This document shows, one piece after another, positions 16,608 through 28,758 of a stretch of DNA of 64,000 nucleotides; position 1 is the first letter of the stretch; each line of letters opens with the position of its first letter. Source of the stretch: a bacterium (GTDB lineage: Bacteria > DUMJ01); contig JBMFOH010000002.1 of assembly GCA_049969715.1 (NCBI GenBank), positions 7,434 to 71,433 of the forward strand, given 5' to 3'. The notes under the pieces are model-generated. The model worked only from the letters and a program-made list of their open reading frames with translations. It was not told where the DNA came from and made no database searches. The position numbers and the translations under genes are program-made.

Positions 16608-18557
16608 CTAGAATTTTTCTCCTATACTAAAATAGAATCTTCCTTGCCAATCTGTACTACCCCAACCATAATCCATTCTTATAACCCCCATAGGAGGAAC
16701 CATTACTCTTAGCCCTAATCCTATTCCCATTTTAAGGTCAGCAGGAGCTACTGTTTCATTATTATCCCATCCATTTCCTAAATCCCAAAATATAACCCCA
16801 GTCAGATTCTGATCATATTTCCATCTATATTCAAAGCTTATCAACTCCGTAATATCAGCCTTTTTCCAATTTTCAGGTAATCCCCTTATAGAATTAAAAC
16901 CTCCCACGGTATACTTTTCTATATAGGGAATACTTCCTAGTCCTACCCCCCACATATAATTTACTGCCAAAATTTCATCCTTGGATATAGGTTCATACCA
17001 ACGCAAATCTGCATTTAATTTGGTGAAGTTAAAGTTACCTCCTAAAACACCTCCACCTTCTTCTATACTAACAGTGTGATAGACTCCATTCTGTGGGCTA
17101 AAGATAATGTCTCTAGTATCTTTAGATGCACCTAAGGTCACTGAATTTGATTCTCCTGAGCTTATGAAATCCGGTAGGATATATCCCTCTTTGGGTTGAT
17201 ATTGAAAGTTATTGAAAGAAATTCCCACTATCCCATACAGATTATTTCCTACCAACTTATTGATGTTTACCTCAAAGCTTTTCACATCCTCATTATAACT
17301 TACCGACTCATCATTTATTGTCTCAGTATAACTTCCCTTCTTCCATACAATATTACTATTTAATGTGGTATTAGTATTAGCTAAATAGGGTTCTGTATAG
17401 CTTAATGAGAGACCTTCTGTAGATAGGCTTAAACCAAGATTTAGAGATAACCCAAGTTTTCTCCCAGTTCCTAGAAGGTTGGAGTCACTTAATCCAAATG
17501 ATATAGAAAACCCTTCAGAAGTAGAATAAGTAAGAGAACCACTAAGTTGGCCCGTAGGCTGTTCAACTACATTTACTACTAATATCACCTCTCCAGGAAT
17601 TTCGGCATTTTTAAGACTTACACTGAGGTCAGAAAAATAACCCAGGTTATATATCTTCTGGAGGTCTTTTTGTAGTGCATTTACATTCAATACGTCTCCA
17701 GGCTTTATGTTCATTTCTCTTAAAATGACATAATCCTTTGTCTTTTGGTTACCCTTTACCTCTATACTAGCAATCTTTCCTTCTCCTATCTCAAAAGTTA
17801 GAACCCCTTTACTATCTACTGACGCGTTGAGAACTATAGCTGCCACATAACCCTTTTCTTTGTAGATATCTTGAATCTTTATGGCGATCTCTTTTAAAAG
17901 ATTAGTAGAAACGACCCTACCTTTATATATATCTAATTCTTGACTAAGAATCGATGAGTTTATTACTGAGTTTCCAATAAAGTTAAATCCTGAAACTACA
18001 GGACCCTCTGTGATAATTATGGTCAATACTCCATCGCTAGACATATTAAATTGGAAATTAGCTGCTGCATATCCTCTTTCTCTGTACAGCCTTGCTATAT
18101 TCTCTATGTCCTTCTTTAAGGTATTAAGATTTAGAACCTCCCCCTCCTTTAATGTTATTAGATTTCTTATTTCGTCCAGTTTTACCTCTTTATTACCAGT
18201 TAACTCTATTGATTTTATTACCGGATTTTCCTTTACATTTACTATTAATATATACTTATTCTCTTCTACTTTGACATTTCCATCTACGTTAGAAAACCAT
18301 CCGGTATCTAAAAGTCTCTGTAGACCAGCCTTTAGAGCATCTTTATCTATCTCATCACCAACATTTAAGATCTTAAGAATCTCGTCCTTACTTATATTCA
18401 CATTCCCTAGAATATCGATCTTAGTAATATGAACCTTATCCTGTGATAGTGCTAATGGCACAACCATAAAGATCAACATTACTATCCCTATACCTATTAC
18501 TAGTGACTTCTTAAGCAAGTTACACCTCCTACTACGTTTTGTAATGAGTATATGCAA
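16608..18557 (-). CDS. bamA: BamA/Omp85 outer-membrane protein assembly factor
   Basis: Signal peptide, several POTRA repeats, NLLGTG, SIRG loop-6 motif, RMDYG, C-terminal FSIGEKF; the start is probably a TTG near 18518. Confidence 0.9.
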   Translation of the reverse strand: MHILITKRSRRCNLLKKSLVIGIGIVMLIFMVVPLALSQDKVHITKIDILGNVNISKDEILKILNVGDEIDKDALKAGLQRLLDTGWFSNVDGNVKVEENKYILIVNVKENPVIKSIELTGNKEVKLDEIRNLITLKEGEVLNLNTLKKDIENIARLYRERGYAAANFQFNMSSDGVLTIIITEGPVVSGFNFIGNSVINSSILSQELDIYKGRVVSTNLLKEIAIKIQDIYKEKGYVAAIVLNASVDSKGVLTFEIGEGKIASIEVKGNQKTKDYVILREMNIKPGDVLNVNALQKDLQKIYNLGYFSDLSVSLKNAEIPGEVILVVNVVEQPTGQLSGSLTYSTSEGFSISFGLSDSNLLGTGRKLGLSLNLGLSLSTEGLSLSYTEPYLANTNTTLNSNIVWKKGSYTETINDESVSYNEDVKSFEVNINKLVGNNLYGIVGISFNNFQYQPKEGYILPDFISSGESNSVTLGASKDTRDIIFSPQNGVYHTVSIEEGGGVLGGNFNFTKLNADLRWYEPISKDEILAVNYMWGVGLGSIPYIEKYTVGGFNSIRGLPENWKKADITELISFEYRWKYDQNLTGVIFWDLGNGWDNNETVAPADLKMGIGLGLRVMVPPMGVIRMDYGWGSTDWQGRFYFSIGEKF

Positions 18558-18566
18558 TTTCTATTC

Positions 18567-19816
18567 CTAAGGTTCGAAGAAAATCTTAGCCCCTATAGCT
18601 GTAAGCTTCCTATCAATACACTCGTATCCACGTTCTATATGTTCTATCCCGGATATCTCTGTAACCCCCTCTGCATTAAGCCCTGCCAAGATAAGAGCAG
18701 CACCAGCCCTTAGGTCGCCTGCTATAACACTAGCCCCAGAATATTTTTTGATTCCTACTATAACTAGAGTATTACCTTGTACCTTCATATTTCCACCCAT
18801 CCTAATTAACTCGTCAACAAATCCAAACCGACGATCGAATATAGTCTCTGTTATTACACTTGTTCCCCTTGCCACTCCTAATAGGCTAGCAAAAAGAGCC
18901 TGCATATCAGTAGGAAAACCAGGATAAGGAGCGGTAGTAATATCACAGGCTTTACATATCCCTTTAGATATAATTGTTATATTATCCCCTTCTATCTCTA
19001 TTTTATGTCCCATCTCCTCCAATTTTCCAATAACTGCTCCAAGGTGTTCCCTTTTAGCCTTCTTAATAGTAACCTCACCACCAGAGATCGCACCAACTGC
19101 TAAAAACGTACCCGCTTCTATCCTATCTGGGATAATAGTGTACTCTACAGGAGAGAGAGAGTCTACCCCTTCTATCTCTATTTTATCTGTTCCAGCCCCC
19201 CTTATCTTTGCGCCCATTATATTTAACATATCTGCTAGATCTACAACCTCTGGTTCTTTCGCTGCATTAATAATCTCAGTCTTGCCTTTAGCTAATACTG
19301 ATGCCATTATTATATTTTCAGTCCCAGTAACCGTTGGTAGATCTAGATATATAGAGGCACCCTTTAGGTTCCTACATTCTAGCTCCACATATCCATGTTC
19401 GGTAGACACCTTCGCTCCAAGAGCCTGAAAGCCCTTTAAATGTAAGTCGACAGGCCTTGAACCTATCTGGCATCCTCCAGGTAATGGAATTCTTACCTTT
19501 CCTAGTCTGGCAAGAAGAGGTCCAGCAACAAGAAAAGATGCCCGCATCTGCTTTACCTGTTCTTCAGGTGGATCTACTGGTAACAAGTTCTTTATAGTGA
19601 TTTGGAGAGTAGCGTCTCTAAATTCTATCTTTGCTCCAAGGCTTTCCAACATACTCATCATAGTATGGACATCCTTCAAGTTTGGAATATTATGAATTGT
19701 ATTAGTTCCATCTGTAAGTAGCGTTGCTGCCATTATAGGTAAAGCAGCATTTTTAGCTCCAGTGATCTCTACTTCTCCTTTTAATTTGATTCCACCCTCT
19801 ATCTTTAATCTCATCA

Positions 19817-19817
<1 letters not shown>
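18567..19817 (-). CDS. murA: UDP-N-acetylglucosamine 1-carboxyvinyltransferase
   Basis: GAKNAALP, MRAS, PGGCQIGSRP, PYPGFPTD, DLRAGA, RGYE. Confidence 0.98.
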
Positions 19818-21615
<1,798 letters not shown>

Positions 21616-22485
21616 TTATTCTTCCCTTTCTATCGCTGCCTTACTTGAAGATACCTCTATAATCTCTGTGGTTATAGAGGATTGTCTCAACCTCTGATAA
21701 GTCTTATATAGTGATTCTAGTAATTCTTTTCCATTTTCATATGCTTGATGCATAGCAACCCTTCTTGCTGCATACTCACTTGTTATAGCCTCTAAGAATA
21801 CCCTATAGAGAGTTACGCCAATAAAAAGCGAAAGTAATTCTCTCAAGATATCCTCTATAGAGGGTTCAAATATATAATTTTCAAATCTACCTACCTTTTC
21901 TGTCTCTCTAAATTGAATTGGCATTAAAGTAAAGTCAACTGGCATATACACAAAGGCATTCCTAAATAGAGTATAAATCACAGAGACCTCTTTATATCTA
22001 CCAGTTACAAAATCATCCTGGATCTTATTTGAAATGTTATAGACGGTATCAAAACTTACTATAGGACTTATAGAATTCGCTTCTATTATATTATATCCTT
22101 TATTATATAGGGTCTTACCTACTCTTGACCCATACACAATAATCTCTGTCTCCTGCGAAGCCCTTATATATTCTTGGACCTTTCTCACTACATTCCCTAA
22201 GTAACCACCACATAAACCTCTTTCTCCACCTACCACTATCAGTAGATTTCTCTTAGCTTCAGCTGGAACTTGCAATAGAGGAAAGGATTGTCTATCTTCT
22301 TTACTAACACCGGCAACAAGGTCTTTTAATAGATTCATAAGGAGATCACTATAAGGAGTAATAGTCTTAAGTCTGGCTTGACTTCTCCTTAATCGAGAAG
22401 CAGCTATAAGCTCAGTAGAACGTATTATCTCAGAAATATGATTTATATTATTTATATGTTTCTTAAGCCTCTGCTGAGATTGCAT
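21616..22485 (-). CDS. atpG: F1 ATP synthase subunit gamma
   Basis: RGLCG, SEYAARRVAM, RQSSITTEIIE. Confidence 0.96.
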   Translation of the reverse strand: MQSQQRLKKHINNINHISEIIRSTELIAASRLRRSQARLKTITPYSDLLMNLLKDLVAGVSKEDRQSFPLLQVPAEAKRNLLIVVGGERGLCGGYLGNVVRKVQEYIRASQETEIIVYGSRVGKTLYNKGYNIIEANSISPIVSFDTVYNISNKIQDDFVTGRYKEVSVIYTLFRNAFVYMPVDFTLMPIQFRETEKVGRFENYIFEPSIEDILRELLSLFIGVTLYRVFLEAITSEYAARRVAMHQAYENGKELLESLYKTYQRLRQSSITTEIIEVSSSKAAIEREE

Positions 22486-24539
22486 TACTCGCTAGAAAAT
22501 GTCCTCTTAAATTCAAATATTATATTAGACAAACTCTTACTGTTCTCATCTGTAAGCCCTTTATCTTTTATATCCTTCTTTAAATTTTCATAATTTTGAT
22601 TTATAAACTTGATAAGTTCATCCTGGAAGTGAGGTATCTCCTCTAGAGCTATTTCATCCATATAACCTCTAGTCACAGTAAAAAGTATAATTACTTGATC
22701 TATAACCTCCATAGGGCTATATTGAGGTTGCTTTAAGACTTCCCTAATTCTAATCCCTCTTTCTATTTGATTTTTTGTAGCTGAATCTATATCAGTGGAT
22801 ACCTGGGCAAAGGTTTCTACCTCTCTATATTGTGCCAAGTCTAATCTTAATCTTCCAGATATCTCCCTCATAGCTTTTATTTGAGCACTTCCTCCAACTC
22901 TAGAGACAGAAAGGCCGACGTCTACAGCTGGTCTTATTCCTTCATAAAAGAGTGATGAGTCTAGATATATCTGTCCATCAGTTATAGAAATAAGGTTGGT
23001 AGGAATATAAGCAGATATATCACCTAATTGAGTTTCTACAATAGGAAGTGCAGTAAGAGATCCTCCCCCTAGATGACTATTCAACTTTGCAGATCTCTCT
23101 AGAAGCCTGGAATGGAGATAGAATATGTCTCCTGGATAAGCCTCTCTTCCGGGAGGACGTCTCAAAAGGAGGGAAATCTCTCTATATGCTTTGGCATGTT
23201 TAGAAAGGTCATCATATATTATGAGTACATCTTTCCCCTGATACATAAACTCTTCACCTATAGCGCATCCTGAATAAGGGGCTATATAGAGCAAAGAAGC
23301 AGGCTCATTTGCAGTAGCAGAGATAACAATAGTATAATCTAAAGCCTCTCTTTCCTTTAGTACTCTAACAATATCTACTACGGTAGTTGCCTTTTGTCCT
23401 ATTGCTACATATATACATATAACATTTTCATCCTTCTGATTAATAATAGTATCAATTGCTATTGCAGTCTTACCTGTCTGCCTATCTCCTATAATAAGTT
23501 CCCTTTGGCCTCTTCCTATAGGAATAAGTGCATCTATTACCTTTAAACCTGTCTGTAAGGGAGTATTTACCGGTTCTCTCTCTACTACATTCGGAGCTAA
23601 GGCTTCTATCTTCCTATATCTATTTGTTGTAATAGGAGGTCCTCCATCAAGAGGCCTCCCCAAAGGATCAATCACTCTACCTTTCAATTCTTCTCCTACA
23701 GGTACAGTTAACATCCTCTGAGTGCTTCTGATTATATCCCCCTCTGGAATCTCATCCGGAGAACCTAAGAGTATTATTCCAGTTTCCTCTTCCTCTAAGC
23801 TCATTACCATCCCAGGGATATTATTTGAGAATAAAACCATTTCTCCATATTGGCTATTTTTTAAGCCAGAGGCAACGACTACACAGTCCCTTATACTCTT
23901 TACCCTTCCTGTAGAAAGCCTCAGCGGTTTCGGAAGGAACCCTTCAACCTTATCTTTTAAATCCTTTATTACTCCTTGAAAAGAATCCTTAGCCTCCACA
24001 AGGGATAACTCGTCTCGAATGAGATCTAACTGGGCCTTTAGGGAGACATCTATAGTTTCATCTTGAAGCTCTATCCTTACCCCATTTATTATATTTGGGT
24101 CTACTTCAGTAAGAATCACTACCTTTCTATTTAGAACTTCTGAAAGATAACTTCCTATCTCTTTTATCTTCTCATCTGAAACATTAAAAGGTAACTTTAC
24201 TCTGACTTTTAAAGGCAGACTTGTCTCTACCAGATCAATAAATCTCGTATATACCTGTTCTATAAGCTCTTCCTCTCCATCTTCGATTATCTTAGAGATG
24301 TAACCTAGGACTTTAGAAGGTAATATACCAGTAAATCTTTCTCTAATGGTTCGTTTCTTTACTTCAGGGGTTAGACTTTTATCAAAGAAAGCCTTATTCA
24401 AATCGTAATTGTGAGTAATATCTTCTATAAAGATCCTTAAAGACTCTCTATATACATCTATAGCCTCATCCTCTAAAGCTAATTGCAACAGCTCATTGCT
24501 AAGGATATCTACACTGTCAGAAATTAATACCTCACTCAT
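22485..24539 (-). CDS. atpA: Fused F1 ATP synthase delta-alpha subunit (AtpH-AtpA)
   Basis: Residues about 1-180 are delta-like (VDPNIINGVRIELQDETIDVSLKAQL); the rest is alpha (IGRGQRELIIGDRQTGKT, RRPPGREAYPGD, LSVSRVG); single 684-aa ORF, no separate atpH in the operon. Confidence 0.92.
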   Translation of the reverse strand: MSEVLISDSVDILSNELLQLALEDEAIDVYRESLRIFIEDITHNYDLNKAFFDKSLTPEVKKRTIRERFTGILPSKVLGYISKIIEDGEEELIEQVYTRFIDLVETSLPLKVRVKLPFNVSDEKIKEIGSYLSEVLNRKVVILTEVDPNIINGVRIELQDETIDVSLKAQLDLIRDELSLVEAKDSFQGVIKDLKDKVEGFLPKPLRLSTGRVKSIRDCVVVASGLKNSQYGEMVLFSNNIPGMVMSLEEEETGIILLGSPDEIPEGDIIRSTQRMLTVPVGEELKGRVIDPLGRPLDGGPPITTNRYRKIEALAPNVVEREPVNTPLQTGLKVIDALIPIGRGQRELIIGDRQTGKTAIAIDTIINQKDENVICIYVAIGQKATTVVDIVRVLKEREALDYTIVISATANEPASLLYIAPYSGCAIGEEFMYQGKDVLIIYDDLSKHAKAYREISLLLRRPPGREAYPGDIFYLHSRLLERSAKLNSHLGGGSLTALPIVETQLGDISAYIPTNLISITDGQIYLDSSLFYEGIRPAVDVGLSVSRVGGSAQIKAMREISGRLRLDLAQYREVETFAQVSTDIDSATKNQIERGIRIREVLKQPQYSPMEVIDQVIILFTVTRGYMDEIALEEIPHFQDELIKFINQNYENLKKDIKDKGLTDENSKSLSNIIFEFKRTFSSE

Positions 24540-25029
24540 TAATAGTACTCACATCCTTAAGATACTTTTCAAGAACCTTTTCTTTTAAGTCTTCCTGGCT
24601 TAAGATTTCGTCCTTAACTAGCTTAGTTGTGGCATCTAGAATGATCTCTACTATCTCCTCTTTAAACTTTTCTATAGTATGTTTTCTCTCTAATACTATC
24701 TCATTTTGAGCCTTTTCTAGAAGAGACTGGGCTTCTCTATGTGCCGAATCTAAGATCCTACTCCTCTCTACTTCAGCCTGTTGCTTCGCCTTCTCTATAA
24801 TCTCTTCAGCCTGGGACCGAGCTTCTTTCAACTGTTCCTCATACTGAGCCTTAAGAGATTCTAGATTAGCCCTCTCCTTTTCAATCTCTTCTAGACCGCT
24901 TTGAATCTTTTTTTGCCTCTTATCTATATAGGAAGCCAAGGGCTTATAGGCAAACCTATATATAAGATATAATGTGACAACAAAGTTTATAATCTGAAAT
25001 ATAAAAGTAGGAAAGGTAAACTTTATCAC
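24532..25029 (-). CDS. atpF: Fo ATP synthase subunit b
   Basis: FQIINF TM segment, RFAYKP, long coiled coil. Confidence 0.95.
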   Translation of the reverse strand: MIKFTFPTFIFQIINFVVTLYLIYRFAYKPLASYIDKRQKKIQSGLEEIEKERANLESLKAQYEEQLKEARSQAEEIIEKAKQQAEVERSRILDSAHREAQSLLEKAQNEIVLERKHTIEKFKEEIVEIILDATTKLVKDEILSQEDLKEKVLEKYLKDVSTINE

Positions 25030-25295
25030 TACTGTACCATCCCCACAAATGGATTAACAAACAAAAGGACTAAGGCTACTACAAGCATAAATATAACTAA
25101 CGATTCTATAAATGCAAGCCCCAAAAGTAAGATAGTCATAATTGACCCTTGTGCCTCTGGTTGTCTCCCCAAAGATTCCATAGCCTTAGAGACTGCATTA
25201 CCTTCTCCCAATGCTCCTCCCAATACTGCTATACCCATACCCCAACCTGCAGCAAGTACAGAAGCCATAATTACTAATGCCTTACTAGTTAACAC
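25029..25295 (-). CDS. atpE: Fo ATP synthase subunit c
   Basis: Two TM helices, RQPEA loop, conserved E64 in FIESL. Confidence 0.96.
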
Positions 25296-25317: not shown

Positions 25318-25971
25318 TTATTCTTCCTCTATAGCACCTGCTATGTATAGAAGAGTAAGGAGAGAAAATATAAATGCCTGGATAAGACCAGTAAAGAGCC
25401 CTAATAACATCATAGGGATAGGAAGTATAAGTGGAACTAGCATCACTAAAAGGGCTATCACAATCTCCTCTCCTATTATATTCCCAAAAAGACGGAACGA
25501 TAAAGACACGGGCCTTACCAATTCCTCAAGAATATTTAAAGGTAAAAGGATAGGATTAGGTTCTATATATTTTTTGAAAAAACGCCAACCCTTTTCTCTT
25601 ATCCCTGCCACATAAGTAGAAGCTACCGCTACTATAGCTAAAGCTACAGTAGTACTTAGGTCTCTAGTAGGAGCATTAAACCCAGGGATAATCTCTATCC
25701 AATTGGAAAGGAGAATAAATATGCCTATAGAAAGAGCTAACGGAACGAATTGTTTACCTTTCTCCCCCATTACCTGCACTGCTATATTATCATAAAACTC
25801 TATAAGGGTCTCGAATAGAGACTGAATCTTACTCGGATATTCAGAAAGACTTCGAGCAAGGATCCAACTAAATACAAATATTATCCCCATCACTACCCAA
25901 GTAGTAGTGACAGAGTCTGTTACAGGTATTCCTAATACCCAAAAAACTATCCTTGGTGCTATCTCTTGCAT
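25318..25971 (-). CDS. atpB: Fo ATP synthase subunit a
   Basis: RPVSLSFRLFGNI with the essential Arg, GLIQAFIF. Confidence 0.96.
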   Translation of the reverse strand: MQEIAPRIVFWVLGIPVTDSVTTTWVVMGIIFVFSWILARSLSEYPSKIQSLFETLIEFYDNIAVQVMGEKGKQFVPLALSIGIFILLSNWIEIIPGFNAPTRDLSTTVALAIVAVASTYVAGIREKGWRFFKKYIEPNPILLPLNILEELVRPVSLSFRLFGNIIGEEIVIALLVMLVPLILPIPMMLLGLFTGLIQAFIFSLLTLLYIAGAIEEE

Positions 25972-26315
25972 CTTAAGATTCTTAAGCCTCCTATTAAAAG
26001 TGTCAGAGGATATATAACTAATCCTATCAGTAAGCCTAATATACCTAACCTATTTATTATACCACAAAATAGGAATATAGATACCACTCCAATGATGATT
26101 ACTACTCTAATAAGTGTACCCACACCAAACTTAATATGATCTAAAGGGGGTTCTCTATCCTTTAATAGTGTAAAGATAAGAGTCAAATCTAATATCCCAA
26201 TAAAAATACCTATAAAGTATCCTAAAAGATATTCCTTCTTTATAAGGAAAAGAACTCCCAAAGGCAAAGCTGAAATAAAATAGGTTTTAAGTAATGTCAA
26301 GAATGTCTTATTCAT
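25959..26315 (-). CDS. atpI: ATP synthase protein I-like membrane protein
   Basis: Four hydrophobic segments, directly upstream of atpB. Confidence 0.7.
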   Translation of the reverse strand: MNKTFLTLLKTYFISALPLGVLFLIKKEYLLGYFIGIFIGILDLTLIFTLLKDREPPLDHIKFGVGTLIRVVIIIGVVSIFLFCGIINRLGILGLLIGLVIYPLTLLIGGLRILRCKR

Positions 26316-26507
26316 TTTTTAAGTTGGTCATATATGCTCTTTAACCCTACATAAGCTCCCAAGAACATAAAGAGGAGTCTAAATGAGTATCCAGTAAACA
26401 GTCTCTCATCAATAAATTTTCCCAAATATAACCCAACTAAAATAGAAGAGACTATTGTAAATCCTATAGAGAAGGCGATTCCTATATACCACCATGTTTT
26501 ATTCCTT

Positions 26508-28758
<2,251 letters not shown>

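Follow-up and report, generated by a model that had tools for sequence, protein, structure and literature searches.

In the canonical bacterial F1Fo ATP synthase, subunit delta is the product of a separate gene and is present in one copy per complex, and by the long-held view an F-type enzyme has one peripheral stalk and hence one ion channel. Two papers from 2025 describe stalk numbers of two in nature (Chloroflexus aurantiacus; PMC12002316) and of three by design (Bacillus PS3; PMC12229609). The locus examined here, in which delta and alpha are read as one frame, raises the question of how many stalks a natural enzyme of this kind would carry. The window, a 64,000-nucleotide stretch of contig JBMFOH010000002.1 from the genome of an uncultured hot-spring bacterium (GCA_049969715.1), holds this gene within an atp operon, and all positions below refer to it.

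The fusion gene and its operon

A single 684-aa ORF with an ATG start, at 22485..24539 on the minus strand, encodes delta followed by alpha (atpH-atpA). An earlier note had described it as one uninterrupted frame after atpF, with a delta of about 180 residues and a full alpha, and this description is confirmed by the ORF itself and by Pfam and NCBIfam profile scans. The delta part matches Pfam OSCP (PF00213) at residues 17-178, covering profile positions 9-172 of 172 with 69.2 bits against a curated cut-off of 22.3 bits. The alpha part carries ATP-synt_ab_N (211-273), ATP-synt_ab (331-546), and ATP-synt_ab_C (553-677), and residues 193-682 match NCBIfam TIGR00962 (atpA) at 724.5 bits, above the equivalog cut-off of 484.45 bits. 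F1 alpha proper, with its crown barrel, nucleotide-binding, and C-terminal domains, spans residues 211-684 and the stop codon (22485..23909, minus strand), and a Foldseek comparison of the predicted alpha part with 5hkk_A gives a TMt of 0.97 and an rmsd of 1.5 Å.

The remainder of the operon is standard by Pfam, with all genes on the minus strand. The fusion ORF overlaps the end of atpF (24532..25029; subunit b, 165 aa; PF00430 at 101.4 bits, TIGR01144) by 8 nt and the start of atpG (21616..22485; gamma; PF00231 at 220 bits) by 1 nt. The atpF gene is the sole b gene, being the one match above the cut-off in the genome. Upstream lie atpE (25029..25295; subunit c, 88 aa, a single hairpin), atpB (25318..25971; subunit a, 217 aa; PF00119 at 174.2 bits), a weakly matching, possibly AtpI-like small membrane protein (25959..26315; PF03899 at 18 bits, below the cut-off of 25.1), and a small membrane protein of the ATPase_gene1 family (26312..26563; PF09527 at 47.5 bits), while atpD (20221..21612; beta) and atpC (19817..20224; epsilon) lie downstream. 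A rule given in a recent preprint (bioRxiv 10.64898/2026.10.01.756066) associates Na+ coupling with Glu or Gln in helix 1 of subunit c together with E[STQ][STQ]xxY in helix 2. Helix 1 of the window's subunit c has the Glu (GEG); in helix 2, however, the sequence is ESLVIF, in which two of the required Na+ ligands are missing, so that the rule predicts an H+-coupled enzyme.

Integrity of the fusion

In the genome from which the window comes (1.91 Mb in 84 contigs, 98.64% complete), there is no OSCP match other than the fusion ORF, in agreement with the earlier claim that there is no separate atpH. Among the alpha-type matches listed for this genome there is no second F-type alpha; the others are beta, the A/V-type A and B subunits, and a 449-aa FliI-like frame. 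The same fusion, sought in related genomes as the note had proposed, is present as a stop-free frame of 681-697 aa in 6/6 genomes of the family, at 68-70% identity to the window protein, and in each of these it is again the sole OSCP match. The fusion state thus spans two genera, with the frame open in 7/7 species including that of the window. A word-indexed protein search with the delta region returned close relatives only (4 proteins), and three more database proteins, likewise of 684 aa, match the window protein in the same three Pfam domains.

In a draft assembly of 84 contigs one might suspect an artefact of assembly or sequencing, or a pseudogene in decay, but this is almost certainly not the explanation here. 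Apart from the open frames in seven species and the additional database proteins, both domains score above curated cut-offs, and dN/dS, detailed below, is far below 1. The note had also asked for read coverage at the junction, and a metagenome contig covering 23802-24159 shows 0 differences and 0 gaps against the window; the run in question may, however, be the window's own source. On the open frames, the database proteins, dN/dS, and this contig, we reject a sequencing artefact. A second metagenome run (X1) gives no cover over about 23872-24007. The sequencing-run search places DNA of the fusion gene in hot-spring metagenomes; no RNA run containing it is among the runs listed.

A real frame could still yield an ordinary delta and an ordinary alpha, and hence a canonical enzyme, if the polypeptide were split by an internal start near residue 181 or by proteolysis. 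In the window genome an in-frame GTG does stand exactly at the junction (residue 181, 23999), where it is the first codon of the segment encoding the junction coil (residues ~180-186) and the alpha N-terminal helix (187-199; 23910..23999, minus strand), and this coil is predicted with lower confidence. The GTG is the only in-frame ATG, GTG, or TTG within residues 150-230. The note's judgement that its context is weak is borne out: no Shine-Dalgarno-like motif lies upstream of it, although atpE, atpC, and murA do have one, and the corresponding codon is ATA or ATC in 6/6 relatives, among which no other in-frame start recurs near the junction. Initiation at this codon is unlikely, since it is neither conserved nor preceded by a Shine-Dalgarno site. 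As for proteolysis, the coil offers only about 7 residues, and a cleaved chain would leave delta and alpha in equal numbers, not at 1:3. We therefore regard splitting as quite improbable. Judged from the genomes compared, the fusion is real and is encoded as one polypeptide, which presumably stays uncleaved.

A complete delta joined to the alpha N-terminal helix

[quoted passage not shown] Over its full length the delta part aligns with the solved complete deltas of Bacillus PS3 (6n2y_I, positions 12-176 of 178, E = 1.5e-8) and of E. coli (5t4o_L, 17-175 of 177). For the AF2 model we used a 101-row alignment, which replaced a 9-row model with a mean pLDDT of 45.5 that was unusable for alpha. 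In this model, the N domain consists of helices 8-24, 27-43, 45-52, 58-69, 75-86, and 90-107 (pLDDT 91-96), and the C domain of strands 110-116, 140-146, 155-158, and 161-164 with helices 122-136 and 167-179 (pLDDT 78-88). A short coil of about 7 residues leads from there into the predicted alpha N-terminal helix, which is conserved in relatives; D185, S186, and F187 at the junction are invariant.

The substitution rates indicate that every part of delta, the N domain included, is under purifying selection. Across four independent species pairs, dN/dS is 0.07-0.23 for the delta N domain, 0.08-0.13 for the delta C domain, 0.09-0.16 for the alpha N-helix, and 0.03-0.05 for alpha, values that are rough because dS is partly saturated (0.6-3.1).

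The junction closely resembles that of the engineered PS3 chain. Residues 120-681 of the window protein align in one stretch to 9jc1_I, the delta C domain falling on the delta part of that chain, and a single one-residue gap is the sole length difference at the junction. In Foldseek, 9jc1 chains rank 2, 3, and 6 and supply the three longest of the alignments listed (573-577 columns), at an rmsd of about 10 Å, for which reason the monomer model is silent on docked geometry. A complex prediction with three copies of residues 1-210 (ipSAE 0.00 and 0.00) was run without controls and gives no answer either way.

Frequency and origins of delta-alpha fusions

Delta-alpha fusions have several independent origins and are fairly common in metagenome data. 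The junction is crossed by 54 of the 150 best-scoring cluster representatives, a result at odds with the earlier view that the fusion type is probably rare rather than unprecedented. Three architectures occur, namely full-length delta-alpha, deltaC-alpha, and b-deltaC-alpha, the short type without the delta N domain being seen in L084 and P0129. On the alpha tree, the full-length fusion has at least three origins, and this recurrence suggests selection. Several of the genomes compared have atpH and atpA separated by one stop only; since elsewhere the two genes frequently lie side by side in one frame, a single mutation suffices for fusion. An OSCP scan of 401 genomes gave a match in 296, and the best 150 of the matches are open frames of 174-453 aa, none of them fused; since only these strongest matches are listed, with 161 weaker ones outside, the scan yields no fusion frequency and no proof of absence.

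Number of peripheral stalks

Because delta and F-type alpha are each encoded in the fusion gene only, the expected F1 head is (delta-alpha)3-beta3-gamma-epsilon. It would contain three deltas, as the earlier note had inferred, and the lack of a conserved internal start is in keeping with this. We tentatively read this as an enzyme in which two or three b2-a stators can be bound to a single c-ring. A complete delta/OSCP with both of its domains is joined in one polypeptide to the N-terminal helix of F1 alpha, such that each alpha would carry in cis a delta C domain and alpha N-helix module, the docking site for a b2 dimer, at a spacing that matches the engineered construct, in which every alpha bears a stalk and an a-subunit. 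The three N-terminal domains might then cluster above the crown, or a single one might be docked. With extra stators, more ions would be moved for each ATP, and a lower ion-motive force would suffice for synthesis. Subunit stoichiometry, stalk number, and energetic consequence are all matters on which we infer from the gene. In favor of several stators are the fixation of the fusion in the family, the constraint on all of its parts, the absence of a conserved internal start, and the one-residue difference from a junction that carries up to three stalks (9jc1). The published description of C. aurantiacus likewise shows that F1 has room for more than a single delta N domain (PMC12002316). The deltaC-alpha and b-deltaC-alpha fusions suggest that in those enzymes a stalk element on every alpha would be hard to avoid.

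Against this stands the N domain itself. The note had argued for up to three stators, pointing to an engineered PS3 fusion and a natural one in Acidaminococcus. Both precedents are real, but according to PMC12229609 both are without the delta N domain, which the window protein has; the analogy as stated is not supported and does not imply three stalks. The same paper and PMC12002316 trace the restriction to a single stalk to the N domain, and the canonical six-helix form retained here under purifying selection differs from the dimerising N domain of C. aurantiacus, a four-helix bundle. In the alternative reading, one delta docks normally and the other two hang idle from their alpha N-helices, with stalk number and ion/ATP ratio unchanged. 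The docked delta would place its N domain on the axis, where it would hold the N-helices of the remaining two alphas, and the conservation of these helices, including the invariant junction residues, also fits this normal mode. The fusion would have become fixed as a nearly neutral change, the loss of one stop codon, or because the tether aids assembly or thermal stability, the latter fitting its occurrence in hot-spring metagenomes. Yet two deltas would be wasted per complex in a state that persists across two genera and arose repeatedly, and the short junction probably keeps each alpha N-helix beside its own delta C domain, which would favor the cis arrangement of the engineered enzyme over trans binding to an N domain. 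We consider a single stalk plausible but doubtful. If only one stalk does form, fusion alone does not multiply stalks, and this would be a caution against inferring multi-stalk enzymes from gene fusions, metagenomic ones included.

The strongest form of the multi-stator reading, in which three complete deltas are always present, their N domains cap the crown symmetrically, and a single c-ring is engaged by three b2-a stators, seems unlikely to us. Were it true, the delta N domain would not be an absolute limiter of stalk number, the ion/ATP ratio would be approximately three times the c-ring size divided by 3, and the window organism, a thermophile with an A/V-type ATPase as well, would possess a naturally evolved low-voltage ATP synthase.

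Comparison with known systems

The closest counterpart is the engineered PS3 enzyme (PMC12229609, Nat Commun 2025; PDB 9jc1), which is reported to form up to three stalks with a-subunits and to have an H+/ATP ratio of 5.8 versus 3.0. As in the window protein, the C-terminus of delta is joined to the N-terminus of alpha in one chain through a short junction, and there is no free delta. The engineered construct, however, is deltaDeltaN-alpha, with delta residues 2-104 deleted, whereas the window protein keeps the whole N domain. Its linker is artificial Gly/Ser, whereas the natural one is SLVEAKD, an essentially linker-free join to the alpha N-helix. Stalk number and H+/ATP were measured for the engineered enzyme, while the window protein is known from its sequence. 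The window's family is a natural test of the N-domain rule, combining the junction of a three-stalk design with the supposedly forbidding domain under selection, and given their hot-spring origin its proteins should suit expression and cryo-EM.

Natural delta-alpha fusions are mentioned in the Discussion of the same paper for Acidaminococcus fermentans, along with UniProt G4Q3K6 and A0A1I2C5T3; these are described as lacking the delta N domain and are predicted to have multi-stalk capacity. Like them, the window has delta and alpha fused within a natural operon, but it differs in retaining the N domain, a comparison that for A. fermentans is by this description only. The rotary ATPase survey (bioRxiv 10.64898/2026.10.01.756066) similarly describes delta-alpha fusions as going with a shortened delta segment, whereas delta in the window protein is not shortened, its OSCP match covering profile positions 9-172 of 172. 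What appears to be new relative to these precedents is a complete delta, N domain included, fused to alpha, although full-length fusions or the window's lineage may already be in Supplementary Fig. 9 of PMC12229609 or Supplementary Figure 1 of the preprint.

The enzyme of C. aurantiacus, described as alpha3 beta3 gamma epsilon delta2 a2 b4 c10 with two stalks (PMC12002316, PNAS 2025), resembles that of the window as a naturally occurring F-type enzyme whose delta is present in more than one copy, the window's three copies being expected from its genes. The C. aurantiacus delta is free, with a four-helix, dimerising N domain through which two deltas interlock and share the top of F1, whereas the window delta is fused and has six helices. 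Finally, in comparison with the canonical enzymes of PS3 (6n2y) and E. coli (5t4o), both moieties are full-length homologues in an otherwise standard operon, and what differs is that delta is fused to alpha and the genome encodes no free one.

Structure of the fusion gene

The F-type ATP synthase operon in the window lies on the minus strand, and by ORF calling and Pfam it is of standard make-up with the exception of one long ORF (ATPase_gene1, an AtpI-like gene, atpB (a), atpE (c), atpF (b), the long ORF, atpG, atpD, atpC). This ORF (22485-24539, minus strand, 684 aa) starts 8 nt ahead of the atpF stop. An HMM scan, as proposed in the earlier note, places the delta (OSCP) domain at residues 17-178 (profile 9-172 of 172; 69.2 bits versus a cut-off of 22.3) and three alpha domains at residues 211-677, and NCBIfam identifies residues 193-682 as TIGR00962 atpA (724.5 bits, cut-off 484.45). 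In solved structures, the full-length delta subunits of Bacillus PS3 (residues 12-176 of 178) and E. coli (residues 17-175 of 177) are matched from end to end by residues 1-180. From these domain and structure alignments, delta ends near residue 180 and alpha starts near 184, essentially without a linker. The description in the earlier note, a 684-aa ORF comprising delta and a full alpha subunit, was right in every point that was checked.

Directly after atpC follow murA and bamA on the same strand (16608-19817), with murA starting at the last base of atpC (19817) and bamA 9 bases after murA. Both envelope genes may share a transcript with the atp operon, and BamA implies an outer membrane in this organism.

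The fusion is real and conserved

In the window's genome (1.91 Mb, 98.64% complete), the long ORF is the only OSCP match, bearing out the claim that there is no separate atpH; one b gene scores above its cut-off, and no second F-type alpha appears among the matches listed. When related genomes were compared, a stop-free frame of 681-697 aa was found in all six from the same family (68-70% identity, matching the query over 1-684, 4-684 or 7-684), and it is the only OSCP match in each. In 34 other genomes, all listed matches that extend into the delta region held 1-2 stop codons and are separate genes read through. A large protein collection contains three further proteins of 684 aa that share the set of three Pfam domains. 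Across the junction, where a check of coverage had been suggested, a metagenome contig covers 23802-24159 with no difference, although its run is possibly the assembly's own source. Against the open frame in 6/6 relatives, these additional proteins and this contig, an artefact can be excluded for practical purposes.

It is also improbable that the fusion protein is processed into free subunits. Between residues 150 and 230, a GTG at residue 181 is the sole in-frame start codon, and its context is as weak as initially described: no Shine-Dalgarno-like motif lies upstream, whereas clear ones are found at atpE, atpC and murA. The same codon reads ATA or ATC in the six relatives, and no other in-frame start recurs near the junction in them; a start inside the ORF is thus not conserved.

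Constraint and predicted fold of the delta moiety

Between the two genera of the family, identity is 33-42% in the delta N domain, 35-45% in the C domain and 81-83% in alpha. Delta is a fast-evolving subunit, and such divergence is normal for it. Four independent species pairs give dN/dS values of 0.03-0.05 in alpha and 0.09-0.16 in the alpha N-helix region, with 0.07-0.23 in the delta N domain and 0.08-0.13 in the C domain; these values are rough because dS (0.6-3.1) is partly saturated. In the AF2 model of the fusion protein (101-row alignment, mean pLDDT 89.5), the delta N domain is predicted to consist of six helices (pLDDT 91-96) and the C domain of four strands plus two helices (78-88). 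A predicted coil spans about 180-186, ahead of the alpha N-helix at 187-199 (70-74); the alpha part appears normal (Foldseek TMt 0.97, rmsd 1.5 A versus 5hkk_A). The model and the substitution rates indicate that delta is folded and under constraint throughout, N domain included.

Distribution and origins of delta-alpha fusions

Among the 80 loci with alphas closest to that of the window, drawn from 185,579 species genomes, three belong to the family, four are other fusions and 73 have separate genes. Two of these fusions, in Clostridia MAGs (L025:5974-8037 and L029:1015-3093), join a full delta (OSCP 12-176 and 11-176) to alpha with a linker ~2-6 residues longer than the family's in a protein alignment. 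A third, in a Christensenellales MAG (L084:133-1992), joins only the delta C domain (OSCP profile 103-170) to alpha, like the type described for A. fermentans; the cluster representative P0129 (643 aa) is similar. The fourth, in an Oscillospiraceae MAG (L052:3886-6138, plus strand), is a triple fusion of 751 aa with ATP-synt_B (7-87), the C-terminal part of OSCP (176-246) and a full alpha, just downstream of a second, free b gene (L052:3410-3847, 145 aa). In this type, each alpha would carry its own b chain.

A junction-spanning profile returned 24,925 matches (E <= 0.001), free alphas and free deltas included, from 1.84 billion cluster representatives, and 54 of the best 150 align across the junction to the window protein. 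Ten of the 54 were typed by Pfam: three are full-length delta-alpha (P0027, P0038, P0133), one is delta-C-alpha (P0129), four are b-delta-C-alpha like L052 (P0043, P0071, P0092, P0147; 724-753 aa) and two are fragments.

In an alpha-only tree of 95 rows, the family groups as a separate clade (support 100) with a long stem (0.81). The L025 and L029 sequences are nested among unfused Clostridia alphas (support 95) and thus represent an independent origin, while P0038 falls in a clade (support 100) whose 18 other members are unfused alphas from bacilli, enterococci, streptococci and their relatives. The full-length fusion state requires 5 changes on the tree, of which well-supported branches force at least 3; the exact number is unsure as several fused rows sit on long branches. 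Taken together, the locus survey and the tree show that delta-alpha fusion is recurrent and that the family is an independent case. The initial view of the fusion as rare rather than unprecedented holds in that its kind has already been noted in print, but 'rare' has to be corrected, such fusions being fairly common in metagenome data.

The alpha crown barrel (residues 211-273; window 23721-23909, minus strand) has a low PF02874 score of 24.2 bits in the window protein; scores are 58.8 and 60.2 in L025 and L029, and 29.6-35.3 in several other fusions (P0133, L084, P0147, P0027). The top of alpha may have diverged in the family where delta sits.

Ion coupling, a second rotary ATPase and habitat

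In its helix-1 GxG motif, the c-subunit (25029-25295, minus strand) carries Glu in place of Gln, a feature shared with chain 3zk1, but its helix 2 reads ESLVIF, a two-carboxylate site without the Thr/Ser and Tyr ligands of Na+ c-rings. With two ligands missing by the published Na+ rule, E[STQ][STQ]xxY (bioRxiv 10.64898/2026.10.01.756066), H+ coupling is predicted. The window's genome also contains a complete A/V-type operon, I-K-E-C-F-A-B-D (G000:C3, locus L094:4771-12818, minus strand; I 659 aa, K 156 aa with a double hairpin, A 587 aa, B 458 aa), and A- and B-like frames that match it occur in the relatives. With two rotary ATPases in the organism, the F-type enzyme may be specialised. Of the sampled words of window 23600-24600, 0.59-0.67 occur in two hot springs metagenome runs from two studies; the organism is probably a hot-spring dweller. 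By kinship label, the compared genomes outside the family all share only the domain, none the order, class or phylum, and within this collection the family, with 2 genera and 7 species, seems isolated at high rank.

One stalk or several

The engineered PS3 chain is present in three copies in PDB entry 9jc1, and residues 120-681 of the window protein align to it in one stretch (14-576). The natural SLVEAKD occupies the place of the engineered Gly/Ser linker with a single one-residue gap, so the spacing from the last delta helix to the alpha N-helix is practically that of the construct. The construct is known to place a canonical delta-C/alpha-N/b2 site on every alpha, and we take the matching spacing as the strongest argument for a putative stalk site on each alpha of the fusion enzyme. 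The short tether would favour packing of the alpha N-helix on its own delta C domain over the central N domain of another chain.

The gene encodes one polypeptide with all parts constrained and the engineered junction length, and there is no free delta or alpha gene. We infer that F1 is (delta-alpha)3 beta3, and we tentatively favour a multi-stalk enzyme. In it, each alpha N-helix would pack against the delta C domain of its own chain, following 9jc1, so that b2-a stators could attach at two or three sites and give more ions per ATP; the three N domains would pack above the crown or stay mobile. A less probable but serious alternative is a single-stalk enzyme, in which one delta would dock in the usual manner and take up the alpha N-helices of both other chains, while the remaining two deltas stay idle. 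The main argument against several stalks in the simplest form is the selection on the N domain, since an unused domain should decay; this selection is compatible with a multi-stalk enzyme only if the N domain has a role, for example as a cap. The observation of the fusion is thus confirmed, and its interpretation partly supported.

Comparison with known systems

No experimental work on a natural delta-alpha fusion turned up in the literature searched. The engineered enzyme averages two stalks and a-subunits and reaches three at most, with an H+/ATP of 5.8 versus 3.0, and its authors conclude that the delta N domain restricts the enzyme to one stalk (PMC12229609). A natural two-stalk enzyme is described from Chloroflexus aurantiacus, where two free deltas dimerise via four-helix N domains (PMC12002316). 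A 2026 preprint with a genome survey notes delta-alpha fusions, accompanied by a shortened delta (bioRxiv 10.64898/2026.10.01.756066). The two precedents named in the earlier note are both real, but both are without the delta N domain: the PS3 protein is delta(105-178) fused to alpha, and the natural A. fermentans fusion is likewise described as lacking it (PMC12229609), whereas the family's fusion has a full-length delta. With the fusion kind itself already in print, what appears new is the full-length delta, the absence of a linker and the independent origin. The family's fusion is of interest chiefly because it puts to a natural test the published view that the delta N domain restricts stalk number.
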